Shown one piece after another: positions 6,107 through 57,434 of a stretch of DNA of 64,000 nt (positions are counted from its first letter, which is position 1; each line of letters starts with the position of its first letter). The stretch comes from Kiritimatiellia bacterium (lineage in GTDB: Bacteria; Verrucomicrobiota; Kiritimatiellia; RZYC01). The notes under the pieces are model-generated. The model searched no databases. It was not told the origin of the DNA and saw only the letters and a program-made list of their open reading frames with translations. The translations under genes and the position numbers were made by a program. Location: assembly GCA_028708815.1 (NCBI GenBank), contig JAQVYB010000003.1, positions 6,267 to 70,266 on the forward strand, in the 5' to 3' direction.

Positions 6107-6174
6107 GGCTGCGGGTTGGGCACATGGTTGGTGCGATTGGGGCAGAGTCTGTCTGAGACGAACTGAGCAGGAGT

Positions 6175-7550: not shown

Positions 7551-7555
7551 GGAAG

Positions 7556-7945
7556 GTGCGTTTGGATATGGCCTACACGATTTTGGTGGTGGACAATTCC
7601 CTGCTTGCGCGCACCTTTATGGAAAAGGCCCTTCGGCTTTCCGGCCTGCCGATCGGGGAGATCTGTCTGGCCTGCAACGGACGCGAAGCCCTGCAAGTGA
7701 TGGAGGAGCGTTGGATTGATCTGGTGCTTACGGCCATCAATATGCCCGAGATGAACGGGTTGGAGCTGGTGCAGACCATGCGTGCCGGTCCGGCGCTTAA
7801 GAATCTCCCGGTGGTGATTGTATCCTCCGTGCGCAGCGAGGCCCGTATGCGGGAGCTGGAGCAACTCGGCATCAAGGGCTACGTCACGAAACCCTTCACC
7901 CCTGAAAAACTGAAACAGATCGTGGAAGGATTGTTGCCTGCATGA
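7556..7945 (+). CDS. CheY-like single-domain response regulator
   Basis: REC fold: ILVVDNS, phospho-acceptor D in DLVLTAINMPEMNG, conserved K in GYVTKPF. Confidence 0.75.
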   Translation: MRLDMAYTILVVDNSLLARTFMEKALRLSGLPIGEICLACNGREALQVMEERWIDLVLTAINMPEMNGLELVQTMRAGPALKNLPVVIVSSVRSEARMRELEQLGIKGYVTKPFTPEKLKQIVEGLLPA

Positions 7946-7964
7946 GTCCGTTCAAGGAGATGTT

Positions 7965-8468
7965 ATGACCGAGAATCCCGCCATCCCCCGGCTTGCCGGC
8001 GAGGATGTGCATGAAATTCTGTATGATGTGGCCGCCGACGTACTCGAGAAGTTTGCCTTCCTGTTTCTTTCCCCGGCGGGGTCGGTCCCTGTCCCGTTTC
8101 GTGGTCGTATGTTTCTGCATGCCGAAATCGAATTTTCCGGGCCCTTTTCAGGCCGGCTCTCGCTGGTTGCGTCCCCATCGTTTTGTTCGTTGCTGGCGGC
8201 GAATGTGCTGGGCATGGAGCCCGCAGAACTGACGGTGGAACACGCGGAGGACGCCCTCAGGGAACTGGTCAATGTGATCTGTGGAGAATTGCTGGTGGCC
8301 CTGGCCGGGAAGGCTGTGATCTTTGACCTGTCGGCGCCTGTACTCAAGCGGATCAGCGCCGCCGACGCTCAGGCCGTCGCCGTGCTTCCGGAATCTCTGG
8401 CCGTGATTGTGGATGAGGAACCGCTGATCATTGCATCGGCCCTGTGTTTGGACCACGACACACGATGA
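7965..8468 (+). CDS. CheX/CheC-like chemotaxis phosphatase domain protein
   Basis: 167 aa; resembles CheX family (E/N-containing helix ELVNVICGELL); position after CheY. Confidence 0.5.
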   Translation: MTENPAIPRLAGEDVHEILYDVAADVLEKFAFLFLSPAGSVPVPFRGRMFLHAEIEFSGPFSGRLSLVASPSFCSLLAANVLGMEPAELTVEHAEDALRELVNVICGELLVALAGKAVIFDLSAPVLKRISAADAQAVAVLPESLAVIVDEEPLIIASALCLDHDTR

Positions 8469-8568
8469 AGCGGTCTCCGTGGTCTGTGGCCTGCCCGGCC
8501 CGCAGAATTAATGCCGCCTGCGAAATAAAGCCATTGCAGGACTGTGCCCAACGTATTATGTTGCGCGT

Positions 8569-8967
8569 TTGCGATGGATGAAAAAACAGGGAAACGAAAT
8601 CGGAATGACCACACTCCTGATGATTGATGACGAGGAATTGTTTCTGAAATCAATGTCCCGCTATTTTGAGCGCAAGGGGTACCGCGTGGTGGCCGAACGC
8701 CTGGCGGAAAAGGCGCTCGCGTGTTTCCAGGCCGAGCCGGAAGCCTTTGATGCCGTCATCCTGGATCATGATATGCCCGATCTTTCCGGTGCGGAATGCC
8801 TGCGGCGCATCCTGGCGCTGCGCCCCGAAACACCCGTTATCGTGATGAGCGGATACCCGCCTGAAACGCTGCCGCCCGGCGACTACGCGCGCGCACGCGC
8901 CCTCCTGGGAAAACCCATGGACCTGGCCGATGTGGAGCGGGCGGTTCAGGCTTGTCTGAAGAGATAA
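8569..8967 (+). CDS. Single-domain response regulator (REC)
   Basis: LLMIDDEE...ILDHDMPDLSG...VIVMSGY...GKP receiver motifs; true start may be the ATG at ~8605. Confidence 0.65.
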   Translation: MRWMKKQGNEIGMTTLLMIDDEELFLKSMSRYFERKGYRVVAERLAEKALACFQAEPEAFDAVILDHDMPDLSGAECLRRILALRPETPVIVMSGYPPETLPPGDYARARALLGKPMDLADVERAVQACLKR

Positions 8968-8970
8968 CGC

Positions 8971-10560
8971 GTGCCGGGTTCGGCTTGTAATCGGCGCCGC
9001 ACACGCCTACATTTCTTCGTCATGAATGTTTTGCGAATCAGTGGTTCCATGCATCAGGCAGATCGGGCAACCCCGTTGCTGCATGCGGCGGGCGGGGTGC
9101 ACGTCAATATCTGTACCGACCTTGAACAGGCCACTCAATTTCTCCGTGAGCAGAACCCCGATTCGGTGCTGGTGGATTCAGATGCCGCCGAACGAAAATC
9201 GCTGATGGCCTTCATACGTCGTCATGCCGGGCGATGGCCATTGGTGGTGTTGCTGCATCATCCGCATGAGGATGCCGCCGAAGATTTCCTGCTGGCCGGC
9301 GCACAGGATGTCCTGCCCGCCGCCGCCGTGGCTCCCTCCGATTTTTCCAGAGCCCTGCATTTGGCGCCGCTTCGCCTTCTTCGTGAGCGGCATTTGCATG
9401 AAGCCCTGGAACAGTCGCTCAAGATGGAGGCGGTCGGGCGAATGGCCGGCGGGATCGCGCACGATTACAATAATCTCCTGACCGTGATCATGAACAATGC
9501 CATTCTCGCCCGCGACGCGCTTCCGCCGGCATCCGAGGCGATTGTCGATCTGAATGAGCAGATACGCATCATCAAACAAGCTGCCGCTCTCACTCGACGC
9601 CTGCTGATCATGTCGCGCAGCAAGCCGAACATGCTCGAAGAGGTGGATCTTTGCGCCCTGGCCTCCGGCATGAAAAAAATGTTTCGTCATGTTACGGGTG
9701 ACCGGGTGCGTCTGCATCTCCTGCTTGCAGAGAAGCCCGTTTTCATCCGGGCCGATCCCATTCAGGTGGAGCAGGCCCTCCTGAATCTGGTGATCAATGC
9801 GTGCGATGCCATGTGGTATGAGGGAGCCATCACCATCACCGTGGCCGTGTGCGATATGATGCAGGAGGCGGGCCATCTCTATTTCGGTGAGCCGGATGAG
9901 CCGGAGCGTCCGCGTGCCATGATCTCCGTGGCCGATACCGGCGAAGGCATCTCCGAAGAGGTTCTTCCCCACCTCTTTGAACCTTTTTTCACCACGAAAA
10001 ATGCGGACCAGGGAACCGGATTGGGACTTTATCAGGTATACAGCACCGTCCAGCAGCACCAAGGCGCCATCAGCGTTTGCAGTGTTGTCGGAAATGGCGC
10101 CGAGTTTCGCCTCTTCTTTCCGATGCAATCAGGTGTTGCCCGCCCACAGGTTGAATCACCACCTGCTCCTCCGCCTGCTCCCGGGCGCGAAATCATTCTG
10201 TTGGTGGAAGATGATGGCGGGGTACGCCGAACGACGCGCCGCCTGCTCGAATCTCTCGGCTATGAAGTGATGGAAGCGGAAAACGGACGCGAAGCCCTGG
10301 GCCTCGAAGACTCACGCTTGGCAAGGGTACGTCTCCTGCTCAGTGATATCATGATGCCGGATATTGACGGCGTACGCCTGGCCGACGCATTGCGCGGACG
10401 CCACCCGAAACTGCGCATCATTCTCGTTTCGGGTTATCCCGATGAAAAACTCGCCCGACAGGGACTGCTGCCCGAAAAATACGCCTTTGTCCCCAAGCCG
10501 TTTCTTGATGATTGCCTCCCCCGCCTCATCCGCGCTTTGCTTGATGAAGAGAGACTGTAA
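8971..10560 (+). CDS. Hybrid sensor histidine kinase (degenerate N-terminal receiver-like domain, HisKA, HATPase_c, C-terminal REC)
   Basis: H-box GIAHDYNNLLTVI; N/G boxes (LNLVINACDAM; DTGEGI; GTGLGLYQVY); C-terminal REC (ILLVEDD...DIMMPDIDG...VSGY). Start may be 9016. Confidence 0.75.
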   Translation: MPGSACNRRRTRLHFFVMNVLRISGSMHQADRATPLLHAAGGVHVNICTDLEQATQFLREQNPDSVLVDSDAAERKSLMAFIRRHAGRWPLVVLLHHPHEDAAEDFLLAGAQDVLPAAAVAPSDFSRALHLAPLRLLRERHLHEALEQSLKMEAVGRMAGGIAHDYNNLLTVIMNNAILARDALPPASEAIVDLNEQIRIIKQAAALTRRLLIMSRSKPNMLEEVDLCALASGMKKMFRHVTGDRVRLHLLLAEKPVFIRADPIQVEQALLNLVINACDAMWYEGAITITVAVCDMMQEAGHLYFGEPDEPERPRAMISVADTGEGISEEVLPHLFEPFFTTKNADQGTGLGLYQVYSTVQQHQGAISVCSVVGNGAEFRLFFPMQSGVARPQVESPPAPPPAPGREIILLVEDDGGVRRTTRRLLESLGYEVMEAENGREALGLEDSRLARVRLLLSDIMMPDIDGVRLADALRGRHPKLRIILVSGYPDEKLARQGLLPEKYAFVPKPFLDDCLPRLIRALLDEERL

Positions 10561-12624: not shown

Positions 12625-12668
12625 GAGCCCGACACGCATATTGACGGATGATGGATTGGAGCGGAGAA

Positions 12669-13448
12669 ATGAAAAAAATGATTATGGCGGGTTTGGTTCT
12701 TTTCGGCTTGCTTCAGGGCGCACAGTCGGAAGAGCAGGTAGACACACTGGTTCAGGTCTCTTCTTTGGATGCCCTCTTGAGTGGAGCCTACGATGGCGTT
12801 ATGACCTTTGCCGATCTGAAAAAGTTCGGCACCGCCGGCATTGGCACCTTTGATCGGTTGGATGGTGAGATGCTGCTGCTGGATGGCATGGTTTATCAGA
12901 TGAAATCCGATGGTTCCGTGGTGCAGCCGGAGGATTCCATGACCACGCCCTTTGCCGCCGTTTGCTCTTTTCGAGCCGAAGAGCAAATGAGCACGGAGAT
13001 CACAATGGACTACGAGGCCTTCAAGGCGGCCCTGACCACGTGGATTCCGCAATCCGGCGCATTGATTGCATTTAAAGTGGACGGGTCATTTCACACGATG
13101 AAAACGCGGGTGGTGCCGGGGCAGCAAAAGCCTTATCCGCCGCTCTCGGAAGTGGCCAAAACCCAGCCGGAATTTGAATGCACAAACGTGACGGGAACGC
13201 TTGTCGGGGTACGGTTTCCCTCGTACATGAGCGGCGTCAACATGGCCGGATACCATTTTCATTTTCTGAGTGAAGATCGGCAGTTCGGTGGACATGTGCT
13301 TGCCTTTGAAATGAACCCAGGGGCCCGCTGCGAAGCCAATCTCTTCGAGCAGTTTCTGATGAAAAGCCCGCCGTTGGAGGGCGGACTCATTCAGGAGCAG
13401 AGCCTCTCCCGCGACCAGTTCGACGCCCTGCTCCAACAGGTGGAGTAA
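12669..13448 (+). CDS. Alpha-acetolactate decarboxylase family protein with signal peptide
   Basis: AlsD motifs (GIGTFDRLDGEMLLLDGMVYQ; HFHF); ATG at 12669 preceded by GGAG; N-terminal signal peptide. Confidence 0.65.
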   Translation: MKKMIMAGLVLFGLLQGAQSEEQVDTLVQVSSLDALLSGAYDGVMTFADLKKFGTAGIGTFDRLDGEMLLLDGMVYQMKSDGSVVQPEDSMTTPFAAVCSFRAEEQMSTEITMDYEAFKAALTTWIPQSGALIAFKVDGSFHTMKTRVVPGQQKPYPPLSEVAKTQPEFECTNVTGTLVGVRFPSYMSGVNMAGYHFHFLSEDRQFGGHVLAFEMNPGARCEANLFEQFLMKSPPLEGGLIQEQSLSRDQFDALLQQVE

Positions 13449-13759
13449 GAATGCTTCTCCAGACGATTCGCCGTTCAAACCAATCTCTTCGACCCCAATG
13501 TCCGCAGCAAACGGATTGAGGCGGCGATGGGAACAAATAATCATCACAGGGATTTCGAGACCTGTTTGAGTTCGTTCGGACTCAGGCGTTTGATCATATG
13601 GGCGTGTTCACTTATTTTCCGAAACCAGACATAGACACAAACAATGTAACAGTTGTGGCGCTACTGTTGTTAAAAACATGAAATAACCCTTGACCGATGA
13701 GTGGAAATATGGAATATCAATAAGCAGTAAGTCGAATACTGTTATACGAGATATTCATT

Positions 13760-14350
13760 ATGCCGCGAAATGAGACCATCAAAAACCTCGTTGAGATCCA
13801 GATCGGATACCAGCTTCGTCAGAAGCCAAAGGCCGATGATGACGGGAAAATCCTGCTGATTCAGCTCAAGGACATCAACACGAGCCGCACCCAACTGGAG
13901 TTCACGGAAGAAACCCTTCGTTTCGATCCGAAGCGCAGCATTGAAAGGCAACTTCTGGAAGAGGGCGATGTCCTCTTTATGGGTAAAGGTTCCAAACCGT
14001 TCGCCTGCGTCGTTCGCAATCTGCCCGCGCCGGCAGTGGCAACCGGCATGTTTTTTATTCTACGTCCGAAGATGAAGCGCATCCTGCCGGAGTATCTGGC
14101 CTGGGTGCTGAACAGCAAACGGACCTTGGACACACTGATGATCGCTTCGGGAACAGGTGTAGCGATGCCGGTGATTCGGCGGACGGAACTGGAAAAAGTT
14201 TCAATCCCTCTGCCCCCGCTGGAAACTCAGAAAAAGATCGGCGAGTTGCAGGAGCTGAACAGGCAGGAAATGGATTTGATAAACCAGCTGAGCGAACAGC
14301 GACAGATTCTCACCGAAGGAATCTGCCGCTCCCTGATGGAAAACTTTTAA
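13760..14350 (+). CDS. hsdS: Type I restriction-modification specificity subunit, half-size (single target-recognition domain)
   Basis: 196 aa; TRD followed by conserved HsdS coiled-coil (LPPLETQKKIGELQELNRQEMDLINQLSEQRQILTE); directly upstream of hsdM; AT-rich, characteristic of TRDs. Confidence 0.75.
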   Translation: MPRNETIKNLVEIQIGYQLRQKPKADDDGKILLIQLKDINTSRTQLEFTEETLRFDPKRSIERQLLEEGDVLFMGKGSKPFACVVRNLPAPAVATGMFFILRPKMKRILPEYLAWVLNSKRTLDTLMIASGTGVAMPVIRRTELEKVSIPLPPLETQKKIGELQELNRQEMDLINQLSEQRQILTEGICRSLMENF

Positions 14351-14364
14351 ACAGGAGAGCAATC

Positions 14365-15867
14365 ATGAATGACCAGCAGATTAAAAACGATATTTACAAT
14401 GTGGTGTGGAGCGCGTGCGACACGTTTCGTGGCACCATCGAGCCGAGCACCTATAAGGATTACATCCTGACGATGTTGTTTGTGAAATATCTGAGCGACG
14501 TGCGCAAATCGAAGATCGCCGAATATAAGAAACAGTACGACGGCAATGTGGTGCGCATTAATCGGGCGATGAGCAACGAACGCTTCTCGATTCCGGAGGA
14601 CTGCACTTTTGACTATTTATATGGAAAACGCAACGATCCCGAAATCGGGCAGACCATCAACACGGTGCTCGAAAAGATTGAGGATGCCAATAAAGCCAAA
14701 CTGCACAATGTGTTCCGCAATATCGACTTCAACAGCGAACACAACCTTGGGAAACCCCGCCAGCGCAATGAGCGGCTGAAAAATCTGCTGGACGACTTTA
14801 ACAACCCCAAGCTCGACCTGCGTCAGGAGCGGGTTGGCCACCTCGATATTATCGGGGATGTCTATGAATATCTGATCGCCAAATTCGCCTCGCAGGCCGG
14901 GAAAAAAGCGGGCGAATTCTACACGCCGTCGGAAGTGTCCGAAACATTGGCGCGGCTGGTGGCCCCCGAAAAAGGAAGCCGCATCTGCGATCCCACTTGC
15001 GGATCGGGGTCGTTGCTGATCAAAGCGTCCAAGCAGGTCGGAAGCCGCGATTTTTCGCTCTATGGACAGGAGATGAACGGTGCCACCTGGGCGCTGTGCA
15101 AAATGAATATGTTCCTGCACGAGGTGGACAGCGCCCGCATTGAGTGGGAAGACACCCTGCGCGAGCCGCAACTGCTCGAAGGCGACAGCCTGATGAAATT
15201 TGATGTGGTGATCGCCAACCCGCCCTTCTCGCTCGACAAATGGGGGCAGGAGATGGCGGCGATAGATCAATACAACCGGTTTGAGCGCGGCATTCCGCCC
15301 AAAAGCAAAGGCGACTGGGCGTTCATCATGCACATGCTCGCGACGGCGGTGGAAGGCAAAGGGCGCGTCGGTGTGGTGGTTCCGCACGGGGTGCTTTTCC
15401 GGGGTGCGGCGGAAGGCGCCATTCGCCAAAAAGTGATTGAAGAAAATCTGCTGGCCGGAGTGATCGGCCTGCCCGCGAACCTGTTCTACGGAGCGGGGAT
15501 TCCGGCGGCGCTGCTGATCTTCGACAAGGCGCGCAAACCGAACGGCAAAGAGGATGTGTTCTTTATCGATGCCTCCCGCGAATTTGAGCAGGGAACCAAC
15601 CAGAACGTGCTCAAGCCGGAGCACATGGACAAAATCGTCGAGACGTTCCAAAAGCGGGAGAAAATTGAGAAGTACAGCTATTCGGCCACCTTCGAGGAGA
15701 TCAAAGAGAACGACTTCAACCTGAACATTCCGCGCTATGTGGACACCTTCGAGCCGGAACCGGAAGTGGATATTCCCGCCGTGCAAAAGACGATTGTGGA
15801 ACTGGAAACCGAGCTGTCCGGAGTGCGGGCGAAGATGGATGGCTATTTGAAAGAGCTTTGGTTTTAA
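14365..15867 (+). CDS. hsdM: Type I restriction-modification DNA methyltransferase subunit M (N6-adenine)
   Basis: HsdM N-terminal domain (IWSACDTFRG), SAM motif I (ICDPTCGSGSLL), motif IV NPPFS. Confidence 0.9.
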   Translation: MNDQQIKNDIYNVVWSACDTFRGTIEPSTYKDYILTMLFVKYLSDVRKSKIAEYKKQYDGNVVRINRAMSNERFSIPEDCTFDYLYGKRNDPEIGQTINTVLEKIEDANKAKLHNVFRNIDFNSEHNLGKPRQRNERLKNLLDDFNNPKLDLRQERVGHLDIIGDVYEYLIAKFASQAGKKAGEFYTPSEVSETLARLVAPEKGSRICDPTCGSGSLLIKASKQVGSRDFSLYGQEMNGATWALCKMNMFLHEVDSARIEWEDTLREPQLLEGDSLMKFDVVIANPPFSLDKWGQEMAAIDQYNRFERGIPPKSKGDWAFIMHMLATAVEGKGRVGVVVPHGVLFRGAAEGAIRQKVIEENLLAGVIGLPANLFYGAGIPAALLIFDKARKPNGKEDVFFIDASREFEQGTNQNVLKPEHMDKIVETFQKREKIEKYSYSATFEEIKENDFNLNIPRYVDTFEPEPEVDIPAVQKTIVELETELSGVRAKMDGYLKELWF

Positions 15868-15900
15868 AGTGGATATGACGGAGAAGGAACGGATAGAAGG

Positions 15901-17355
15901 ATGAACCTGAAACAAATACAGGCAGATATTGAACAGGGCGAAGGGTTGCACCGCGAATTCAAAGAAGCAGGCAATCAACTGCCACGTAACCTGTTCGAAA
16001 CAATCTGTGCCTTCCTGAACACAGATGGAGGCTCAATATTCCTCGGAGTCGCAAATGACGGCACAATCACCGGCATTGATCCAGATGCCGCCACACAAAT
16101 GAAAACGGATTTAGCCAACCTCTCGAACAACCCTCAAAAACTCGACCTTCCTTACCTGCTGTTCCCTCATGAATTTGAACTGGAGGGGAAAACCATCATC
16201 GTCGTCCAGGTACCGCTCAGCTCCCAGCTGCATAAGACTGGTGGACACATCTTTCTGCGAAGCGAAGACGGGGACTATCGTGTACTGGGCACGCATCAGC
16301 TTGCCGGACTCATCAACCGAAAACTAAGCCTGTTCACCGAACAGCGAACACTGCCTTTTGTCACCATGGAGCACCTGCGACCCGAACTGTTCGAACGGGC
16401 ACGCCGCCTCATGCGCTCGACCAACTCGAAACACCCGTGGGCCGATCTCAGCAATGAAGAGCTGCTCCGGATTGGCGGGTTTTACTCCGAAGATCGCGAG
16501 ACAGGAAAAGAATGCCTTACGCTGGCGGCGGTTCTCATGTTCGGCACCGACCTGGCCATCCAGCGGGCTGCACCGGCATATAAATTCGACTGCCTGCTCC
16601 GCCGCGACAATGTGGATCGCTACGACGACCGCGTGATGATCTACACCAACCTGATTGATGCATACGACCAAATGATGGAGTTTGTCGAAAAACACCTGAA
16701 TGATCCCTTCTATCTTGAAGGCGACATGCGAATCAGTCTGCGTGATAAAATTTTCAGAGAAGCCATCTCCAACATCATCTCGCACCGCGAATATACCGGC
16801 GGTGCGCCGGCACGGTTAATGATCTACCGCGACAAAGTCGTTCTCGACAACCCCTGCACCCTGCACCACTTCGGAGAAATCACCCCGGCCAACCTGCGCC
16901 CGTTTTCAAAGAACCCCACCCTCTGCAAATTCATGATCCAGCTCGGTCGCTTCGACCAGCTCGGTTCCGGCGTCACCAATATCAACAAATACCTGCCGCT
17001 CTATGCCAAAGGAGCCAAGCCGGTTTTCAACGAAACTCACCACGGCTTTGAACTGACCATCCCACTGGCAGAGGCCCAAGTCACCGGGGAAGTCACCGGG
17101 GAAGTCACCGGGGAAGTCACCGGGGAAGTCAAACGCCTGCTCTCCGTTATGAATGGCGAAATGAAACGAACCGAGATTCAAAGCGCACTGGGCCTTAAAC
17201 ACGAGGATTACTTCCGCGAAGCTTATCTGCTTCCGACGATCAAGCTGGGGCTGGTTGAAATGACCATCCCGGATAAGCCGCGCAGCAGTAAACAGAAATA
17301 TTGCCTCACCGAAAAAGGGAAACAACTGCTGGAGAGTGAAAACAGAACGAAATGA
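15901..17355 (+). CDS. AlbA_2/Schlafen-like putative DNA-binding ATPase (COG2865-like) with C-terminal wHTH; contains VTGE x4 repeat
   Basis: N-terminal AlbA_2 signature (EFKE...FLNTDGGSIFLGV), central RecG-C-terminal-like/HATPase_c_4-like region, C-terminal helix-turn-helix; stop overlaps next start (ATGA). Confidence 0.6.
   Translation: MNLKQIQADIEQGEGLHREFKEAGNQLPRNLFETICAFLNTDGGSIFLGVANDGTITGIDPDAATQMKTDLANLSNNPQKLDLPYLLFPHEFELEGKTIIVVQVPLSSQLHKTGGHIFLRSEDGDYRVLGTHQLAGLINRKLSLFTEQRTLPFVTMEHLRPELFERARRLMRSTNSKHPWADLSNEELLRIGGFYSEDRETGKECLTLAAVLMFGTDLAIQRAAPAYKFDCLLRRDNVDRYDDRVMIYTNLIDAYDQMMEFVEKHLNDPFYLEGDMRISLRDKIFREAISNIISHREYTGGAPARLMIYRDKVVLDNPCTLHHFGEITPANLRPFSKNPTLCKFMIQLGRFDQLGSGVTNINKYLPLYAKGAKPVFNETHHGFELTIPLAEAQVTGEVTGEVTGEVTGEVKRLLSVMNGEMKRTEIQSALGLKHEDYFREAYLLPTIKLGLVEMTIPDKPRSSKQKYCLTEKGKQLLESENRTK
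17080..17127 (+). repeat. Perfect 4 x 12-nt in-frame tandem repeat (gtcaccggggaa; VTGE x4) inside the AlbA_2-like gene
   Basis: Read directly from sequence. Confidence 0.9.
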
Positions 17356-18371
17356 GCAAAAACCAATACAATCCCGAAATTCATCACCGCCGGTCGATCC
17401 GGCTGAAGGGGCACGACTATGCCGGGGGCGGGTTGTATTTTGTGACGATGTGCGCGCATCGGGAGTTTATCGAAGCAACACGGGGCTCTCCGTTCCTGCC
17501 GCTTCACAAACTCATCCAGGAGCGCATGCAGATCACTGCTGAAAAATGTCCCCACATGGAATGGGGCGAATCGGTGATTATGCCGGATCATTTTCATGCG
17601 CTCATCCGCATTCGAAAAGGCGGCCACCAATCGCTGGGCGATATCATCGGCGGCTTCAAAGCGGCGGTAACGCGCGAATTTCGCAAAAGCATTCGGGGCG
17701 AAAGGGGCGAGAGGGGCGAGAGGGGCGAGAGGGGCGAGAGGGGCGAGGCAGGCCTCGCCCGTACGGGCGGCATCAATGCCGCCCCTATCAATGCCGCCCC
17801 CATTTCTGCCGCCGTTTCCGATAGAATGCGCGTCTGGCACCGCAATTATTATGAAATGATTGTGCGCACGCCGGAGGCGGAAAAGAAGATCGCCCAATAT
17901 ATCCAGATGAATCCGTGGCGGTGCGTGCAGCAACTGAAAAAGGGCCTGCGCGGCATGGGCAACCCTGCACTATGGACCGCCCAAAAGCTAGGTTTACTGT
18001 GCAGTCGCAATGCGCCGCGCCCCAGGAGCCTGCCAAACGCCCCAGTCTATTTGAGCGGCTTCCACTCCCCTATGGAAAAGGAGATTTTCAAAAAGCTGCT
18101 GGAGCTGAAAAAACCAATCATCTGGTGCCCTGCATGGGGTCTGAAACGGGCCGCATTCGCACCCGGCGTGCGCGAAGCGCTTGAGGAAAATCGCATGCTG
18201 ATTTTAGAAATGCACGACACCGCAGGCGATCTGGCCGCGGCTGAACAGCGCAATCGGTTCGTGCTGGAACACGCCGACAAACTCTGGCTCCCGCACGTCA
18301 CCCCCGGCGGCATGCTCGATCGGCTGGTAAGTGAATTGAAAATGAAAAATTTTGAATTAGGAGTTTTATGA
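17352..18371 (+). CDS. Fusion protein: REP-associated tyrosine transposase (RAYT/TnpA_REP, HuH-Y1) domain with internal RGE x5-6 repeat, fused to a C-terminal DprA/Smf-like (SLOG) Rossmann domain
   Basis: N-terminal ~200 aa align motif-by-motif to E. coli RayT from memory (RRSIRLKGHDY..GGLYFVT; PDHFHALI; WHRNYYEMIV...YIQMNPW). C-terminal ~150 aa follow DprA Rossmann pattern (CSRNAPRPRS; YLSGFHSP; LILEMHDTAGD; RNRFV; VTPGGMLDRL). ATGA overlaps at both ends (17352 and 18368). Confidence 0.5.
   Translation: MSKNQYNPEIHHRRSIRLKGHDYAGGGLYFVTMCAHREFIEATRGSPFLPLHKLIQERMQITAEKCPHMEWGESVIMPDHFHALIRIRKGGHQSLGDIIGGFKAAVTREFRKSIRGERGERGERGERGERGEAGLARTGGINAAPINAAPISAAVSDRMRVWHRNYYEMIVRTPEAEKKIAQYIQMNPWRCVQQLKKGLRGMGNPALWTAQKLGLLCSRNAPRPRSLPNAPVYLSGFHSPMEKEIFKKLLELKKPIIWCPAWGLKRAAFAPGVREALEENRMLILEMHDTAGDLAAAEQRNRFVLEHADKLWLPHVTPGGMLDRLVSELKMKNFELGVL
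17694..17747 (+). repeat. 9-nt in-frame tandem repeat (gagaggggc; RGE x ~6) inside the RAYT-DprA gene
   Basis: Read directly from sequence; 4 perfect units plus degenerate flanking units. Confidence 0.85.
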
Positions 18372-19678
18372 ACGACCGAAATAAAAATAGACCGGGCTAC
18401 AAGGAAACCAAAGTCGGGTGGATTCCTGAGGAGTGGGGAACGAAATCAGGTGAAGAAATAACGGCTCTAATAAGCAAGGGCGCATCCCCAAGATGGCAAG
18501 GGTTTAACTACACAACTGAAGGCATGTTATTTATCACCAGTGAAAATGTGCGCGATGGAAAACTTGATATCAGTAGACCAAAGTTTCTTCCCGTCGAGTT
18601 CAACGACAAGATAAAAAGAACCCAACTCAAGAAATATGACATTCTAATAAACTTGGTAGGAGCCTCAATTGGTCGATCATGTCTAATCCCGATCGACCTA
18701 AGCCTCGCAAACGTAAACCAAGCAGTGGCTGTATTTCGCCTCAAAGACAAACGCATAGCATCATATATGGCCGTTTTCTTTCAGATGTCAGACACAGTTA
18801 AGCGCATCTTAGACATGCAAGTAGACGCAGCGCGTCCAAATCTCTCTCTATCTAATTTACGTGACTTTAAATGCCCTCTTCCCCCAATCCTTGAACAGGA
18901 GGCAATTGTGGAAGTGTTGGGGTGCTGGGATGAGGGGCTGGAGACGATTGAGAACCTGATTGAGGCGAAGAAGCTGCGCAAAAAGGGGCTGATGCAACAA
19001 CTGCTGACGGGAACCCGGCGGCTGCCGGGGTTTTCCAAGGATTGGAAAACTGTGAAGCTGGGAGATATTTGCACCGTGGTAAAAAAAGCGGTCGGCGAAA
19101 AGAAAATCATTCCCATGAGTCTTTCGGCAGGCAAAGGGTTTGTCGCGCAAGCCGATAAATTTGGCCGCGATATTTCCGGCAAGCAATATTCGAAATACAC
19201 CCACCTGACTAAAGGATGCTTCACTTACAACAAAGGCAATTCAAAAACGTTCCCGCAGGGTTGCGCCTACCTGCTGGAAGATTATGACGAAGTCGCAGTG
19301 CCGAATGTTTTTATCAGCTTCAAATTCGACGATGGAAAAGCGGATAACAAATTCTTTCAACAGGTCTTCGCTGCAAACATGCACGGAAAGGATTTGATAA
19401 AATTCATCAATAGCGGCGTTCGTAATGACGGCCTGCTCAACCTAAACACAACATGGTTTATGCGGATTACATTCAACCTCCCCACCCTCAAAGAGCAGAA
19501 GGCGATTGCAGCAGTGTTGGAAACGGCGGATGAGGAGATTCGTTTGCTGGAGGCGGAGCGCGATGCGCTGGCCGAACAGAAAAAGGGGCTGATGCAGAAG
19601 CTGCTGACGGGGGAAGTCCGTCTGCCGGCATTTCGGAAAAAACAGCCTGACAAGAAGCGGCAGGACTATTCGGAGTAA
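18368..19678 (+). CDS. hsdS: Type I restriction-modification specificity subunit, full-length (two TRDs)
   Basis: 436 aa; two TRDs each followed by conserved spacer (LIEAKKLRKKGLMQQLLTG and LEAERDALAEQKKGLMQKLLTGE); low-GC TRD regions. Confidence 0.85.
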   Translation: MNDRNKNRPGYKETKVGWIPEEWGTKSGEEITALISKGASPRWQGFNYTTEGMLFITSENVRDGKLDISRPKFLPVEFNDKIKRTQLKKYDILINLVGASIGRSCLIPIDLSLANVNQAVAVFRLKDKRIASYMAVFFQMSDTVKRILDMQVDAARPNLSLSNLRDFKCPLPPILEQEAIVEVLGCWDEGLETIENLIEAKKLRKKGLMQQLLTGTRRLPGFSKDWKTVKLGDICTVVKKAVGEKKIIPMSLSAGKGFVAQADKFGRDISGKQYSKYTHLTKGCFTYNKGNSKTFPQGCAYLLEDYDEVAVPNVFISFKFDDGKADNKFFQQVFAANMHGKDLIKFINSGVRNDGLLNLNTTWFMRITFNLPTLKEQKAIAAVLETADEEIRLLEAERDALAEQKKGLMQKLLTGEVRLPAFRKKQPDKKRQDYSE

Positions 19679-19682
19679 GATT

Positions 19683-22600
19683 ATGAGCGAAGACAGAATA
19701 CCCTACACAGCCACCCCGAGTTACCTGGAGGCGGTGCAGTCGCAGCTTCCCGCGTTGCAACTGCTGATCAATATGGGCTGGGACTACCTAAGCCCCGAGG
19801 AGTGCGTTGCGCTGCGCGGCGGACGGTTGAGCACCGCTCTGCTGGAGCCGGTGTTGCTCGACCATATCCGCGAGAACTGCCGGTTCGATTTCAAGGGGCA
19901 GACGCATGCCTTTACGGAGAATGCCATTCAATCCGCTGTGCAGGCGCTGAAGAATGTCCGCGCCACCGGGGCAACATTCCAGAACGAAGAGGTGTATGAT
20001 CTGCTCTGTCTGGGCACCAGTCAGCCGCAGACGGTGGAGGGCGACACGAAGAGCTTTGATCTGAAATTTATCGATTGGGAGAACTGGGAGAATAATACCT
20101 ATCACTGCACGGCTGAGTTTAAGACGGAGCGAATGGGACAGTCGAAGCACTACATCCCGGACATTGTGCTGTTTGTGAACGGCATTCCGGTGGTGGTCAT
20201 CGAATGCAAGCGGGCGGCCTATACCGACCCGAACAAGAAGCCGATTGATCTGGCAATCGCCCAACTTGGCGATTACCAGCAAGGCGACGGCATCCCGCAG
20301 GTATTCCTGACAACGCAATTGCTGCTGGCGCTGGCCCGCGACAAGGCGGAATTCGGAACAACCGGCACACCACGCAAGTTCTGGAGCCGGTGGAGGGAAG
20401 AATATATCGATGAGCAAATCCGCGACCTGATCGGCATCACGGTGCCCAATGATCAACTCGCCAAGTTGCTGGACGGCCCATTTGCCACCAGCAAGCAGCC
20501 GTTTAAGAAGCTCCTGAACGAGGGACGTTCGATTTATGAGCAGGATCGGACACTGTATGGAACGTGCAGGCCGGAACGGCTGCTGGAGCTGATGTTTCAG
20601 TTTATTCAGTATGATAATGGCCAGAAAAAGATTGCCCGCTATCAGCAGTATTTTGCGGTGAAAGACATTCTGAAACGAGTCACCGCCGCACCGGAAGGCG
20701 AACAGAGAGCCGGTGGCGTGGTCTGGCACACACAGGGCAGCGGAAAGTCGCTGACGATGGTGATGCTGGCTAAGGCTCTGGCGATTTCGAAACGGATCGA
20801 GAACCCGCGCATCATTCTGGTGACCGACCGCATCGATCTGGATGACCAGATTTACGGGACGTTTAAGGCGTGCGGGATGAAGGTGGAACAGGCGAGTACC
20901 GGTGCGCATCTGATCGAGATGCTGCAGGATGGCAAGCGGCATATTATCACGACCCTCATCCATAAATTTGCCGCTGCAACCGCCCGTTCGGCTATCGAGG
21001 TAGATCATAATACCTTCGTCCTGGTGGATGAGAGCCATCGCAGCAACTACAGCGAGCACCATGCCCGGATGAAGCTCGCACTCAAGGGAGCCTGTTTTAT
21101 CGGGTTTACGGGCACGCCACTGGCCAAAGATCCCAAAAAGAACACCTTCTTTAAATTCGGCGAACTGTTTAAACCGGCCTATACGATTGCGCGGGCTGTG
21201 GAGGATAAAGCGGTTCTGCCACTGATTTACGAGGCACGGCATGTCCCGCAGCCGGTTCAGAAAGAGGCGATCGACCGTTGGTTTGAGCGGCTGACCAGCT
21301 CCCTCACCGAAGCGGAACGAGCGGATTTGAAGCGGAAATATTCTTCTGAAACGCAGCTCAACAAAGCGGCCCAGAAAATCCGGATGGTGGCGTGGGATGT
21401 GAGCCTTCACTACTCGATGGCTTATCAGGGCACGGGAATGAAGGGGCAGTTGGTTGCTCCGGACAAAGAAGCCGCACGACTATACAAAAAAACACTGGAT
21501 GAGTTCAGCATGGTCACCAGTGAGGTGCTCGTGTCCGGACCCGGGACCCATGAAGGGGAAAGCAGGAACCCTGAAGCAACAGCCGAAGAAAAAGTGTTCT
21601 GGCAGGGGATGATGGATCGCTACGGCTCTGAGGAGAAATACAACAAGCAGCTTATTAACGCGTTCAAAAAGGCAGAGGAGCCGGAAATCATTATTGTGGT
21701 TGATAAGCTTTTGACCGGGTTCGACGCGCCCTGTAACACGGTTCTTTACCTCGCCCGTACACTGAAAGATCACAGCCTGCTCCAGGCGATTGCCCGCGTG
21801 AACCGGCTTTATGAGGGTAAGGAATTCGGTCTGATTATGGATTACAGCGGTGTCATTGAGAATCTGGACGAAGCGATCGATTTCTACACCAATCTGGCCG
21901 ACTACAATCATGAAGATCTGGTCGAAACCGTGACCTATATCACCGATGAAGCCGCAAAGCTTCCCCAGCTCCACTCAGACCTGTGGGAGCTGTTCGCCGC
22001 AGTAAAAGGCAGCTCGGATACCGAAGTCTATCAGGAACACCTGCGGGACGAAGAACGCAGAGCGAAGTTCTACGAGCGGTTCAGTGCTTTCGCTCGGGCG
22101 ATGGCCCTGGCTCTTGCCTCAACGACATTCCTTGAGCAGACCCCGGAAAAACAAATCAATATCTACAAGAACGACCTGAAGTTTTTCCGTAACCTGCGGA
22201 CTGAAACAGCGATCCGCTTTCAGGAGCGCATTGATTTCTCTGAATACGAACCGAAAATCCGCAAACTTCTCGACACGCACGTTGGCGCGAGCGAAGTCGA
22301 ACAGCTTATTGAACCCATCGACCTGCTGAATACCGAGCAGCGCGAAGAGGTCCTCGGCAGAGAAGACCTGAGCGAAGAATCAAAAGCCGACATGATCGCA
22401 TCCGCCGCGCGACACAGTATCGAACAGGAGTTTGAGAAAGACCCTGCCTTTTTCACAAAATTCTCGAAACTGCTGGAGGATACCATCGAGGCATTGCATC
22501 AGAAGCGGATTCAGGCCGCTGAAGCGCTGGCAAAAATTAAAGATATTGCGATTAAGGTGGCCACGCATACCGATGAGGATGTGCCGAAAACGCTCGTTGG

Positions 22601-22889
22601 CCACGATATGGCGCGGCGGTATTACGGCACGGTTCAGGAAGAGTTGGCAGAATACACAACCGCGAAACCGGATGTGGGCGCAACCATTGCACTGGAAGTG
22701 GTCAAGCGTCTCAACCCACACAAAGTTCGTGACTGGACCAACAACACGGATGCGCTCAATGCCATGCGCCGTGAAATAGACGATATCTTCTTCGAAGCAG
22801 CAGATGAGTTCGGGTTGGAGTTTCCGTTGGAGCTGCAGGATAAACTAATCGATAAATGCCTGGAAATTGCGATTGCCAATGAAAAATAG
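19683..22889 (+). CDS. hsdR: Type I restriction enzyme endonuclease/helicase subunit R
   Basis: 1068 aa; HsdR N-terminal nuclease region, DEAD-box helicase motifs (GSGKSLTMV Walker A; DESHRS), C-terminal domain. Confidence 0.9.
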   Translation: MSEDRIPYTATPSYLEAVQSQLPALQLLINMGWDYLSPEECVALRGGRLSTALLEPVLLDHIRENCRFDFKGQTHAFTENAIQSAVQALKNVRATGATFQNEEVYDLLCLGTSQPQTVEGDTKSFDLKFIDWENWENNTYHCTAEFKTERMGQSKHYIPDIVLFVNGIPVVVIECKRAAYTDPNKKPIDLAIAQLGDYQQGDGIPQVFLTTQLLLALARDKAEFGTTGTPRKFWSRWREEYIDEQIRDLIGITVPNDQLAKLLDGPFATSKQPFKKLLNEGRSIYEQDRTLYGTCRPERLLELMFQFIQYDNGQKKIARYQQYFAVKDILKRVTAAPEGEQRAGGVVWHTQGSGKSLTMVMLAKALAISKRIENPRIILVTDRIDLDDQIYGTFKACGMKVEQASTGAHLIEMLQDGKRHIITTLIHKFAAATARSAIEVDHNTFVLVDESHRSNYSEHHARMKLALKGACFIGFTGTPLAKDPKKNTFFKFGELFKPAYTIARAVEDKAVLPLIYEARHVPQPVQKEAIDRWFERLTSSLTEAERADLKRKYSSETQLNKAAQKIRMVAWDVSLHYSMAYQGTGMKGQLVAPDKEAARLYKKTLDEFSMVTSEVLVSGPGTHEGESRNPEATAEEKVFWQGMMDRYGSEEKYNKQLINAFKKAEEPEIIIVVDKLLTGFDAPCNTVLYLARTLKDHSLLQAIARVNRLYEGKEFGLIMDYSGVIENLDEAIDFYTNLADYNHEDLVETVTYITDEAAKLPQLHSDLWELFAAVKGSSDTEVYQEHLRDEERRAKFYERFSAFARAMALALASTTFLEQTPEKQINIYKNDLKFFRNLRTETAIRFQERIDFSEYEPKIRKLLDTHVGASEVEQLIEPIDLLNTEQREEVLGREDLSEESKADMIASAARHSIEQEFEKDPAFFTKFSKLLEDTIEALHQKRIQAAEALAKIKDIAIKVATHTDEDVPKTLVGHDMARRYYGTVQEELAEYTTAKPDVGATIALEVVKRLNPHKVRDWTNNTDALNAMRREIDDIFFEAADEFGLEFPLELQDKLIDKCLEIAIANEK

Positions 22890-23649
22890 CCTCCAGCCAG
22901 ACCGTGTGATTGAATTCGGCAACCGCCGGATTCCGTATCGGTTGACACGGCAATCCCGAAAGCACATCCGTATTCTGGTTGCCCCTGATCTGACCGTGCG
23001 TGTTTCCGCCCCGCCCCGGGCAGAAGAGGAGCAAATCGAGCATGTTCTAAGGCAGAAAGCCCGCTGGATTGCACGGAAGCTGGACAAAGTCAGAAATTTC
23101 CACCCCCTGCCTGCGCCCAGGGAATATATCAGCGGGGAAACCTTCTGCTATCTGGGGCGCCAGTACCGACTGAAAGTGGACAAGGGAGAAAAAGCCCCCG
23201 CCAAACTAAAAGGGAAATTTCTCTATGTGACCGTGCCGGACAAACAGGATCGGGATGCAGTCAAAAAAGCTGTCGAGAATTGGTATAAGCAACGGGCGGA
23301 AGAAACGGTTTTGCGCTGTCTGGATAAATGCACGGGCGTGGCCGGACGGCACGGCATACCGGCAGCCGCGCTGACTCTGCGCAAAATGCGCACCCGCTGG
23401 GGAAGTTGCAGCAGCAAGGGGCGCATTACCATCAACACCAACCTGATTCAGGCTCCGATTCACTGCATTGAATACGTCATCATGCATGAGCTCTGCCATC
23501 TGAAGCACCACAACCACTCCAAAGCCTTCTATAAGCTTTTAACGCAATGTATGCCCGATTGGCCCAAGAGAAAAGAGGCCCTGCAGCGTGTCGTTATCCC
23601 GCGCGAAAACGGAAACACACCTGTGGGACAGCATGGGGTCACACGATAA
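22879..23649 (+). CDS. DUF45/YgjP-like (M48/WLM-family) zinc metallopeptidase, type I RM-associated
   Basis: HEXXH motif in HELCHLKHHNH; size and position match the metallopeptidase commonly encoded 3' of hsdR; ATG at 22879 overlaps hsdR stop by 11 nt. Confidence 0.7.
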   Translation: MKNSLQPDRVIEFGNRRIPYRLTRQSRKHIRILVAPDLTVRVSAPPRAEEEQIEHVLRQKARWIARKLDKVRNFHPLPAPREYISGETFCYLGRQYRLKVDKGEKAPAKLKGKFLYVTVPDKQDRDAVKKAVENWYKQRAEETVLRCLDKCTGVAGRHGIPAAALTLRKMRTRWGSCSSKGRITINTNLIQAPIHCIEYVIMHELCHLKHHNHSKAFYKLLTQCMPDWPKRKEALQRVVIPRENGNTPVGQHGVTR

Positions 23650-23747
23650 AACTATCCATCGAAAAAAAAGAAGCTCGTTGGTACGTCCTATACACTCCCG
23701 TAAGAGCAACCGTATCCGTGGAACAACGAGCCAAAAGAATACAATGC

Positions 23748-24263
23748 TCAGGCCTGGATATTCACCTGCATGCCGCTGCCATGCATGCTCACCGCATTTT
23801 TTACACTTTGTGGATCAATGAAGAGCGATGGGCGACGGGATGGATTCATCAGGCCTGCTCCGTGCTGCAGCATGTTGGTGTGCGATTTGAGCTGTTTCGT
23901 CAATCCGTCAAAAAGCGGGGTCATATCAATGTAGTTGGATGTCATTATCCGACCGGTGGATTCAGCAATCATAACAACCTCCGTTCAGCCGATTACGTCT
24001 ATGTGTTTGCCCAGCGTGGAACTGCTAACCATCCCTTGTATCGAGCGCGGACTGATGTGCGCGGAAGGGCTGATGGAGTTGTTGATCAGAGCAGACGAGG
24101 TTTGGAGGAGTCGACTGTAGCTGTTGGTGAACTTTTTCAGTCCGTCGAAGACCGGCTGAAAATTGGTGTAGAAGGCAAGATTCGGAACGCCGGACGCTTT
24201 TGTTATCATAAACCACTCCCAATGAAGTGCGGTTTCAGCTATCCGTGCCGCCTCAACCTTCAA
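23748..24263 (-). pseudogene. Low-GC gene with an internal duplication (P[VL]FDGLxK...LQ motif twice) interrupted by one in-frame TGA; possible pseudogene or readthrough
   Basis: Two minus-strand ORFs (23985..24263 and 23748..23972) are in the same frame, separated only by a TGA at 23985-23987 plus four sense codons; the halves share a repeated motif; local GC ~48%. Confidence 0.3.
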
Positions 24264-24453
24264 TCCATTGAAAGCTGTTTTTGAAGCAAGGCTATGTATA
24301 CGCCGTTTGTGGCATGCTGTTAAATATTTTGAATTTTAAACGTTATGTTTTTGCAGAACATGCGGTTGATGGGATACCCTCTTATCTCATAACCGCGTGA
24401 TTCGTGGCACAGGGGCATGGGGATCGTGGTCTTTTTGAGGGACAGGACAGGGA

Positions 24454-25521
24454 ATGGAACAAGCAGAGAGGTGTAACGGGTGGAATCTTGGCGCGTCCCG
24501 CGTGGGTGACGGGGCGCCTTGTTTTATCTTGGCGGAGGCTGGCGTCAATCACAACGGTCGGTTGGAGCGGGCAATCGAATTGGCCGATGCCGCGCAGTCC
24601 GCCGGAGCGGATGCGGTTAAGTTTCAGACGTTCCGTGCGGATCGCCTGGTCAGTTCTGATGCGCCCAAGGCGGTTTATCAATGCGAGCGCACGCATGCAG
24701 AGGAAAGTCAGCGGGACATGCTGCGCCGCCTGGAACTTTCCGAGGAGGATCATCGCGTGCTTGCCGCTCATTGCGCGAAACGGGGACTTCTTTTTCTTTC
24801 GACGCCGTTTGACGAAGAGAGCGTGGATTTTCTGATGAGCCTGGGGGTGCCCGCCCTGAAAATGGGATCTGGTGAGTTGACGAATCTTCCGCTGCTGCGG
24901 CATGCCGCCGGTCAGGGCGTTCCGCTGATTCTGTCCACGGGCATGGCGACGATCGAGGAGGTGGCGCGTGCGGTGGATGCAATTGCTGCGGAGGGTTGTC
25001 CGGCGTGGGCGCTGCTGCATTGCGTCTCGGCCTATCCGGCGAATGCGGGAAGCGTGAATCTTCGCGCGATGGATACGCTGCGTGAACGCTTTGGGGTTCC
25101 GGTGGGTTTTTCGGATCACACGCGTGGCATTGAGGTGGCGATAGCCGCCGCCGCGCGGGGCGCGAATCTGATTGAGAAACATCTTACGTTGAAGCGGTCG
25201 GACGTTGGCCCGGATCACGCGGTATCGCTTGAGCCGATGGAGTTGAAGGCCATGGTTTTTGCGATTCGCAATGTGGAGCGTGCGCTTGGTGATGGATGCA
25301 AGAAGCCGGCAGAGGAGGAAGAAGACGTGGCACGCGTGGCGCGTCGGAGTCTGTTTGCAGCGGTTGATCTGGCTGCCGGAAGTGTATTGCAGGCGGAGAT
25401 GACGGTGGCCCGCCGCCCGGGAACCGGCCTGGCGCCGGACCGGCTTGATGAATTGGTTGGGAGGCAGCTGCAACGGGATGTTTCTGCCGGGGAAATGCTT
25501 CACAGCGATATGTTCTGTTGA
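24454..25521 (+). CDS. neuB: N-acetylneuraminate/nonulosonic-acid synthase (NeuB family) with C-terminal SAF domain
   Basis: NeuB N-terminus (CFILAEAGVNHNG), TIM-barrel motifs (FSDHT), SAF domain at C-terminus. Confidence 0.8.
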   Translation: MEQAERCNGWNLGASRVGDGAPCFILAEAGVNHNGRLERAIELADAAQSAGADAVKFQTFRADRLVSSDAPKAVYQCERTHAEESQRDMLRRLELSEEDHRVLAAHCAKRGLLFLSTPFDEESVDFLMSLGVPALKMGSGELTNLPLLRHAAGQGVPLILSTGMATIEEVARAVDAIAAEGCPAWALLHCVSAYPANAGSVNLRAMDTLRERFGVPVGFSDHTRGIEVAIAAAARGANLIEKHLTLKRSDVGPDHAVSLEPMELKAMVFAIRNVERALGDGCKKPAEEEEDVARVARRSLFAAVDLAAGSVLQAEMTVARRPGTGLAPDRLDELVGRQLQRDVSAGEMLHSDMFC

Positions 25522-57421: not shown

Positions 57422-57434
57422 GGCTGTTTTCCTT

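Follow-up and report, generated by a model that had tools for sequence, protein, structure and literature searches.

A type I operon and its relatives

Between alsD and neuB, a contig of a Kiritimatiellia bacterium (JAQVYB010000003.1, assembly GCA_028708815.1) carries seven plus-strand genes that make up a predicted type I restriction–modification (R-M) operon, at positions 13760-23649 of the 64-kb stretch that was analysed as a whole and that we call the window. Coordinates are positions within the whole window, and genes were called from a listing of its open reading frames (ORFs) together with four profile libraries. The first cistron is a short hsdS (13760..14350), specifying 196 residues with one target recognition domain (TRD) and one C-terminal helix (Pfam Methylase_S, E 1.1e-7), and it is followed by hsdM, which codes for the N6-adenine methyltransferase subunit (14365..15867; N6_Mtase, PF02384, E 6e-106, with HsdM_N). 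Two embedded genes come next: at 15901..17355, a gene for a 484-residue protein in which Pfam recognizes an AlbA_2 (Schlafen-like) domain, HATPase_c_4 and a C-terminal Fic-like_C winged helix; and, at 17352..18371, a gene for a 339-residue protein where motifs, fold and transitive homology point to an HUH/Y1 nuclease resembling the repetitive extragenic palindrome (REP)-associated tyrosine transposases (RAYTs), fused to a DprA-like domain. The operon goes on with a full-length hsdS (18368..19678; 436 residues, two TRDs within two Methylase_S stretches, matched over its full length by PADLOC Specificity_I, E 3e-79), with the translocase-nuclease gene hsdR (19683..22889; 1068 residues, showing HSDR_N, SWI2_SNF2, ResIII, T1R_D3-like and T1RH-like_C domains), and with a YgjP-like (DUF45)/SprT-like zinc metallopeptidase that extends from its ATG at 22879 to 23649 (22879..23649; PF01863, E 8.5e-66). 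The successive gaps between these genes are 14, 33, -4, -4, 4 and -11 nt, and the catalytic signatures NPPF, GSGKS, DESH, HELCH, HFH and NYY are all intact. A single, tightly coupled operon of seven cistrons is what had been proposed from the letters of the sequence, and so it turned out at these coordinates, down to the exact 11-nt overlap of the DUF45 ATG with the hsdR stop. We read 13760-23649, at a probability of roughly 0.8, as a predicted functional type I R-M operon belonging to a five-gene subfamily, with a variable cargo slot, that was probably acquired or exchanged horizontally.

The core displays every feature on which type I membership was tested, in HsdM, in HsdR and in a two-TRD HsdS. 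HsdM scores 298 bits against TIGR00497 (cut-off 242.75), with NPPF at residue 285, and HsdR scores 446 bits against TIGR00348 (cut-off 284.55), with the GSGKS and DESH motifs; readings of the methyltransferase as belonging to MADS or BREX were rejected, their scores lying far under the cut-offs. In enzymes of this type, the M2S complex methylates adenine in a bipartite motif, which the long S specifies through its two TRDs, while R2M2S translocates along DNA and cuts it when unmethylated. The nearest solved relatives of HsdM are 7VRU and 3LKD, then EcoR124II M (E 1.5e-69); for HsdR the sole solved match is EcoR124 HsdR (E 4e-27), aligned over the motor domain alone. The likeness to EcoR124I and type IC systems is thus one of sequence, in HsdM and in the HsdR motor domain, whereas the long S of the window lacks tetra-amino-acid repeats in its central conserved region.

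The association of a half-size S, a full-size S and a DUF45 peptidase had been presented as a peculiarity of this locus, and this it is not. The order short S, M, long S, R, peptidase recurs, with a short hsdS directly 5′ of hsdM and a full hsdS 3′ of it in all seven related loci examined. The closest, L006, from a JGI metagenome, reads short S, hsdM, RAYT, a 41-aa ORF, DUF3800, hsdS, hsdR, YgjP, its products being 91% (HsdM), 94% (HsdR), 86% (peptidase) and 90% (fusion protein) identical to those of the window. In L007, a locus of a metagenome-assembled genome (MAG) of the Pontiellaceae, we find AbiEi, AbiEii, short S, hsdM, RhuM, Fic, KilA-N, RAYT, hsdS, PDDEXK_3, hsdR, YgjP, and L017 has the same five-gene frame with 7 kb of cargo; both are 48% identical to the window in HsdM and 35-36% in HsdR. 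A tblastn search of plasmids with the short S returned 62 records with a full-length relative, and the three that were opened, from Mesorhizobium (NZ_CP083953), Bartonella (NZ_CP104897) and Vibrio (NZ_AP025151), all display short S, hsdM, long S, sometimes cargo, hsdR and an SprT-family peptidase. Core order and gene sizes are identical there and the peptidase gene overlaps hsdR, with HsdM 52-59% and the full-length short S 28-30% identical to those of the window. What differs is that these loci are plasmid-borne, that they have neither a RAYT-DprA nor an AlbA_2 gene, and that the long S and hsdR are separated by their cargo (TIGR04141, DUF4868). As the same arrangement is found in non-syntenic loci and on plasmids, it must be seen as a conserved architecture rather than as the oddity of one island; the five-gene core is widespread across phyla, and barely characterised.

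The peptidase is the last gene in L006, L007, L017 and the three plasmid loci alike. Always coupled to hsdR, it probably acts on the restriction complex, as far as gene order may guide us; no relevant paper came out of a literature search on DUF45 together with type I R-M. We also came across a decayed copy of the operon, L031 (2326-11173), with a truncated hsdM, frameshifted RAYT-DprA and YgjP genes and, of HsdR, a domain-3 fragment only, in which the cargo genes (AlbA_2, RhuM-Fic, YhcG and a KAP NTPase) are still open.

For the most part, then, the operon is an instance of what is already known: a type I R-M system of a recurrent short-S/long-S/peptidase subfamily, which hosts embedded genes and lies in a segment of foreign composition. 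Taken by itself, it is hardly more than a further type I system with genes nested in it. What goes beyond is the RAYT-DprA gene, found again and again next to hsdS in type I systems that are unrelated, and the covarying REP-like hairpins that lie within it.

Short and long specificity subunits

The presence of two hsdS genes of different size raises the question of how many motifs a single M/R set would serve. The short S matches the PADLOC half-size model PDLC03199 (at 5-178 of 208) and, among solved structures, HsdS of T. tengcongensis (TRD1 and conserved region) and the half-S homodimer Esub1 (8VSR). A truncated remnant was considered and rejected, since the gene is retained by seven loci and evolves under purifying selection (ratio of nonsynonymous to synonymous substitution rates, dN/dS, 0.19 against L006). 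The truncated HsdS of type IC mutants (EcoDXXI, EcoR124I) are truncations in the proper sense, whereas the half S of the window is a separate conserved gene; according to work cited in PMC10030836, such truncated proteins dimerise and recognize palindromic, symmetric sites. Esub1 half-S, for its part, forms a homodimer through its C-terminal helix in the crystal (PMC11754733). By analogy, the short S, with its one TRD and its one dimerisation helix, would most likely homodimerise into a pseudo-full S working with the same HsdM, and this would add a second, symmetric specificity to that of the long S.

The way in which the two subunits vary from locus to locus lends weight to this view. When L007 is compared with L017, M is 83% and R 74% identical, while the short S falls to 33% and the long S to 36%; over the seven loci the short S is 22-33% identical where M is 47-83% identical, and 63% identical where M is 91%. 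Its identity follows that of the long S, not that of M and R, so that it behaves as a specificity determinant, as the prediction of two motifs supposes. In the long S the turnover is located in the TRDs: against L006 both are replaced, within N-terminal, central and C-terminal conserved regions that are 90-100% identical. A 32-nt repeat, 91% identical, is shared by the central and C-terminal conserved regions.

Another interpretation is that M and the long S need the short S as an accessory or assembly factor, or that it is a DNA-binding controller of the operon, the system having a single specificity. This reading draws on hsdRSMS of Staphylococcus xylosus, which is the sole experimentally tested system with a short S, M, long S order (Front Microbiol 2023, PMC10030836). 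There, a 191-aa hsdS_short comes before hsdM and an hsdS_long of about 400 aa after it, and a single non-palindromic motif is methylated, only when hsdS_short is co-expressed. The likeness to the window is considerable: a single-TRD short S of about 190 aa directly 5′ of hsdM, a two-TRD long S 3′, co-transcription, and no repeats between the short and the long S. Other facts agree with an accessory role: the short S comes first in the operon and belongs as a fixed part to the five-gene core of every locus examined, its conserved helix is unlike the KKGLMQxLLTG conserved regions of the long S, and the Esub1 half-S homodimer did not bind HsdM convincingly, its authors proposing a regulator (PMC11754733). 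Yet the parallel is incomplete. In S. xylosus, hsdR sits upstream, a peptidase gene goes unmentioned in the consulted part of PMC10030836, and hsdS_short is highly conserved across strains with different motifs, whereas the short S of window-type loci is as variable as the long S, so that invariance between systems of different specificity is a trait which these loci do not share. Moreover, no Staphylococcus appears among the plasmid tblastn matches listed for the short S (25 of 74 records at E <= 1e-3, 60 of 315 at E <= 10), the staphylococcal sequence itself lying outside the comparison. A purely accessory short S thus seems to us rather unlikely. As to the two methylation specificities originally predicted, which are favoured by the variation of the short S and disfavoured by the one motif of the analogue that was put to the test, we give them about an even chance. 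The five-gene core was studied experimentally only once, and the variability seen here, which argues for a genuine specificity determinant in this branch, could be of some consequence.

A shufflon or another phase-variable device was also considered. Inverting type I systems (mSystems 2020, PMC7394358) resemble the window in that they have more than one hsdS per locus; here, in contrast, the hsdS genes are co-oriented on the plus strand, they share no inverted or long direct repeats, and there is no tyrosine or serine recombinase. The longest inverted pair of the block, 30 nt at 70% identity, lies inside hsdM. With nothing to join the two hsdS genes, this is not an inverting phase-variable system, and the reading was rejected.

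Cargo genes and the RAYT-DprA fusion

The interval between hsdM and the long hsdS may be understood as a cargo slot, occupied here by two co-transcribed genes, that of the AlbA_2/ATPase/winged helix-turn-helix (wHTH) protein and that of the RAYT-DprA fusion. In relatives the cargo comprises Fic, RhuM, KilA-N, DUF3800, PDDEXK_3, YhcG, a KAP NTPase and a fusion of E2, E1 and JAB domains. The AlbA_2 gene is absent from L006: it is inserted exactly in the 42-nt spacer that separates hsdM from RAYT, uninterrupted there, and a homologue 59% identical stands at the same position in L031. Conversely, L006 has a cassette made of the 41-aa ORF and DUF3800 after the first 9 nt of hsdS, ATGAACGA being repeated at both junctions. 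Cargo thus differs by precise insertions of cassettes at gene boundaries. Along the operon (window 13760-23649 against L006 697-10558) synonymous divergence (dS) is uneven, with 0.34 for RAYT, 0.42 for hsdR, 0.47 for the peptidase, 0.83 for hsdM and 1.46 for the short S, a mosaic that speaks for the replacement of alleles by recombination and implies breakpoints within or near hsdM and at the borders of the TRDs. In this scenario, the operon would evolve through the exchange of alleles, whether TRDs, short S or, at the limits between genes, cargo cassettes.

Nesting of genes within type I operons has been documented before, PrrC in EcoprrI being an example (PMC12707154), and 'guilt-by-embedding' in such operons has been the subject of a study (bioRxiv 10.1101/2024.01.29.577857). 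The window resembles these systems in the nesting of same-strand genes between hsd genes, in the variability of the cargo and in its defence-type domains; in the text of the latter study AlbA, Schlafen and DprA are absent and 'transposase' occurs once. The slot of this family is a natural place to seek more defence genes in bacteria of the Planctomycetes–Verrucomicrobia–Chlamydiae (PVC) group. In L017, for example, the cargo (2968-9617) consists of a Fic-wHTH gene, a gene of the metallo-beta-lactamase fold, two uncharacterised genes and a 760-aa fusion of E2, ThiF (E1) and JAB, a set that has the look of a module for ubiquitin-like conjugation lodged within an R-M system. In the AlbA_2 protein of the window, the linker contains (EVTG)n, encoded by a perfect in-frame 12-nt tandem repeat, AAGTCACCGGGG, in 4.5 copies on the plus strand (17078..17131; Tandem Repeats Finder score 108, 100% matches). 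The contig of an independent MAG, L095 (JAQUJH010000174.1), terminates exactly at this repeat, which suggests either a break in the assembly or heterogeneity of copy number in the population.

The second embedded gene deserves a longer discussion. In its product, the HFH of residues 80-82 (H80, H82) is invariant among 39 homologues, and within the NYY of residues 165-167 Y166 and Y167 are nearly so. The N-terminal HUH domain is modelled at a pLDDT of 84-95, and its best Foldseek match is the RAYT of E. coli, 4ER8 (E 2e-6), which was solved bound to a REP hairpin, followed by TnpA of IS200/IS605; HUH motif, tyrosine at the catalytic position and fold are common to all. Profile scores are lower, with 52.9 bits for the NCBIfam RAYT equivalog NF047646 (cut-off 80) and, for Pfam Y1_Tnp, 20.6 bits natively (cut-off 23) and 31.1 bits after removal of a low-complexity insert, so that the RAYT label rests on the HUH and tyrosine motifs and on the fold. 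The C-terminal domain was reached by another route. Its AlphaFold model (full-length) has a pLDDT of 27-65, Foldseek being informative for the HUH domain only; a profile of the domain gave against PDB a weak match to the DprA 3UQZ (E 0.11), in which the entire Rossmann domain, RNR motif included, is aligned in register; PF02481 (DNA_processg_A) was matched weakly (E 0.078), in one of 19 family members. With phmmer, however weak these direct matches, the domain found 591 relatives among 1.84 billion representatives, many of them stand-alone proteins of 150-250 aa (E 1e-10 to 1e-13), and when ten of the stand-alone proteins were scanned against Pfam, six matched DNA_processg_A, three of them above the gathering score. 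It is this match of the stand-alone relatives that makes 'RAYT-DprA fusion' a reasonable name. The fusion originally called is upheld in its first half by motifs and fold, albeit under the NCBIfam cut-off, and supported in its DprA half by transitive homology only. A phmmer search of PDB with the entire protein gave low-complexity, collagen-like matches only, and in the searchable literature we found no paper naming both 'REP-associated tyrosine transposase' and 'DprA'.

Within the reading frame of this gene lies an unusual segment of the plus strand (17695..17784), in which a 9-nt tandem repeat precedes two perfect REP-like hairpins. The repeat, GGGGCGAGA in 5.9 copies (17695-17747), is translated as 'GERGER' between the HUH strand and the tyrosine helix, and represents an amplification of the 5′ arm of the first hairpin, GGGCGAGG-cagg-CCTCGCCC (17741-17760), which is followed by GTAC. 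The second hairpin is GGGCGGCA-tcaa-TGCCGCCC (17765-17784). Such structures are common in the family: of 17 RAYT-DprA genes, 12 contain perfect hairpins that are GC-rich and 8 bp or longer, 18 in all, whereas codon shuffling of the genes leads one to expect 1.3 hairpins (at most 6 in 300 shuffles). Their density is 1.1 per kb in the genes as against 0.10 per kb in 196 kb of flanking DNA. Intragenic examples are found in L007 (7295-7314), L008 (10353-10397), L013 (2262-2281 and 2707-2726), and in L012, L014, L018, L022, L023 and L030. The stems differ among homologues with both arms changed, hence covarying, and many follow a GTAG or GTAC, as do the REPs of E. coli. In L007, a synonymous change of GGC into GGG is matched by that of GCC (Ala) into CCC (Pro), and this compensating substitution indicates that the stem was kept at the expense of the protein. 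The same hairpin also stands just upstream of the gene in L013 and L018, and a canonical short RAYT, in L081, is flanked by TGTAGGGGCGAGGcatgCCTCGCCCCTACA on both sides; in the 64-kb window no further copy of the first hairpin, the sole one searched for, was found. The whole reads as a set of REP-like sites maintained within a reading frame. GC-rich hairpins that follow GTAG or GTAC accompany it as they do the RAYT of E. coli, from which the protein of the window differs by its C-terminal DprA-like domain, by the intragenic location of its hairpins, by its embedding in R-M and by not being single-copy in P. desulfatans.

The family is large in PVC bacteria, with 682 matches of which the top 120 are all below E 1e-110. 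Thirty-six loci were considered (the window, L006-L008, L012-L038 and L098-L102), and within the available DNA, about a third of the contigs being shorter than 3.7 kb, 12 of the 36 have type I genes. The hosts are of several designs, that of the window and L006, that of L007, L017 and L031 (HsdR 35-36% identical), and that of L019, with an HsdM only 27% identical; in L018, L033 and L034, hsdS lies upstream of the fusion gene. RAYT-DprA is embedded beside hsdS in no fewer than three unrelated type I architectures. A type IC-like locus, L102 (1730-9566), has still another order, with hsdR (EcoR124_C), Bro-N, hsdS, RAYT-DprA and hsdM, RAYT and hsdS overlapping there by 4 nt.

Does this recurrence reflect a function in restriction? 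RAYTs have long been a puzzle, as domesticated transposases whose benefit is unexplained, and the fusion may be just that: a domesticated or selfish REP-associated transposase lodged in defence islands, which gather mobile elements, and functionally unconnected to restriction. In the available DNA, some two thirds of the family loci have no R-M gene, and their neighbourhoods can be quite ordinary, with sulfatase or transport genes, or else Lamassu-like (HNH_2, RAYT, LmuB_C and a giant helicase); P. desulfatans has at least two copies; and the hairpins with their GTAG or GTAC accompany these genes as they do classical RAYTs. One member, in L099 (7001-7969, P0018), occupies a housekeeping context, between prs and ribosomal-protein genes on one side and murG-murC-ddl-ftsQAZ on the other. 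Against this stand the 4-nt overlaps on both sides, which leave no room for transposon ends, a purifying selection of dN/dS 0.17 (against L006), a conservation higher than that of the R-M genes around it (against L007, 72% identity, with 36% for HsdR), and the repeated position next to hsdS. We consider that a lodger of this kind comes close to an even chance, while falling a little short of it. The more specific idea of an inserted insertion sequence was rejected: the gene is bare, it overlaps both neighbours by 4 nt and there are no terminal hairpins outside the ORF, hence it is not an intact element.

The alternative, attractive but quite improbable in our estimate, is that RAYT-DprA would work together with type I restriction, as an HUH nuclease or recombinase that acts on single-stranded DNA (ssDNA) and is guided by hairpins. 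Its cis sites would be its own intragenic hairpins beside hsdS, it would cut incoming ssDNA or nick the operon, and the DprA-like domain would bind ssDNA or load RecA. If this were true, the protein would cut conjugative or transforming DNA, or that of ssDNA phages, which a type I enzyme dependent on double-stranded DNA cannot see; alternatively, nicking of the operon would drive the exchange of cargo cassettes and TRDs at the hairpin spot. The embedding and the retained hairpins connect REP/RAYT biology to defence or recombination in a concrete way that can be tested.

Composition, borders and origin

The operon was originally taken to be a horizontally acquired island, and the atypical composition that this supposes is indeed present. 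The block has a GC content of 53.3%, compared with 57.4% and 57.1-57.2% in its flanks; the AT skew is +0.10 to +0.20 over 13-24 kb and mostly negative outside, reversing sharply at both borders even though the flanking genes are on the same strand; and the strand-symmetric tetranucleotide distance is 0.20-0.25 in every 5-kb window within 13-26 kb (those starting at 13-21 kb), as against 0.11-0.18 elsewhere except at 57-62 kb, making 14-25 kb the broadest anomaly of the whole window. The AT-rich borders hold as well, with 38.9% GC for 13550-13760 and 38.8% for 24280-24400, in flanks of 57%. To this must be added the variety of the neighbourhoods in which relatives are met: L006, with an HsdR 94% and an HsdM 91% identical, has a different upstream neighbour, L007 lies beside AbiE, and others are on proteobacterial plasmids. 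Composition, non-syntenic relatives and plasmid homologues together favour horizontal acquisition, and the block was probably acquired or exchanged horizontally.

Several observations weigh against this reading, or against its reach. The GC difference is just 4 points, and R-M genes are often compositionally atypical at any age. With a dS of about 0.4 to the closest relative, any transfer was not recent. No integrase, tRNA or flanking direct repeats defining the ends were found, matches between the borders being at most 10 nt, at chance level; the lack of integrase and tRNA first noted at the borders is borne out, as the entire window is free of tRNA and the block of integrase domains. No relative close enough to offer an empty alsD-neuB junction is present in the collections searched: beyond the population itself, alsD reaches at best 73% identity, on a 1.2-kb contig, or 63%, without synteny. 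Finally, the activity of the operon and the number of its motifs, for which S. xylosus gives a discordant precedent, are read from gene content. The island as initially conceived is therefore upheld by its composition and by the unrelated neighbourhoods of its relatives, and left without integrase, tRNA, flanking repeat or empty site.

One may also picture the block as an old resident of the lineage, its composition reflecting the make-up of R-M and defence genes together with internal recombination. The modest GC shift and the want of mobility gene, tRNA or flanking repeats agree with such a history, and so does the fact that every assembly of the population carries the block at the same place: the order alsD, short S, hsdM, AlbA_2 is the same in three other assemblies. 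A dS of at least about 0.4 to the nearest relative also indicates long residence somewhere. However, the same operon type sits in unrelated neighbourhoods (L006, L007, L017) and on plasmids of another phylum, skew and tetranucleotide distance change at the borders as described, and the mosaicism of alleles points to ongoing exchange. Such an old residence is, in our opinion, unlikely, and horizontal acquisition or exchange the better account.

As for the immediate surroundings, alsD (12648-13448) upstream and neuB (24454-25521) downstream were identified by domain matches, in agreement with the flanks first proposed. The homologues of alsD and of the fusion protein point to Kiritimatiellota/Pontiellaceae, and an identical alsD is found in the 'Kiritimatiellae bacterium' MAG GCA_028681075.1; exact look-ups gave no match for the window translations of alsD and of the RAYT-DprA protein and, for a 259-aa start variant of alsD, the same population only. 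From the alsD stop to the short hsdS start runs an AT-rich leader (13449..13759, 42.8% GC), presumably the promoter region, in which no match to the sigma-70 consensus was found; it is identical in three assemblies of the same population (L095-L097) and shows no similarity to the upstream region of L006. At the other end, the block as first drawn has to be shortened: its gene list stands, the operon stops at 23649, and the remaining 630 nt or so, up to 24284, hold two tandem paralogous 74-aa ORFs, 24209-23985 and 23972-23748, which run on the minus strand towards the operon. These are 33% identical to each other (E 2e-13), with GGAGG and GGGAG, which resemble ribosome-binding sites, 7-8 nt 5′ of their ATGs. 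Neither Pfam nor NCBIfam has a match for the pair, the loci retrieved contain no relative of it, and its membership of the island is uncertain. It is a better reading than the 245-aa plus-strand ORF 23547-24284, rejected for want of a family match and for its implausible composition. An AT-rich spacer (24285..24453, 45.6% GC overall) then leads to neuB. Further along, at 57001-62000, the window contains a second compositional anomaly, with a tetranucleotide distance of 0.226, a GC content of up to 62% and a GC skew of 0.3-0.47.

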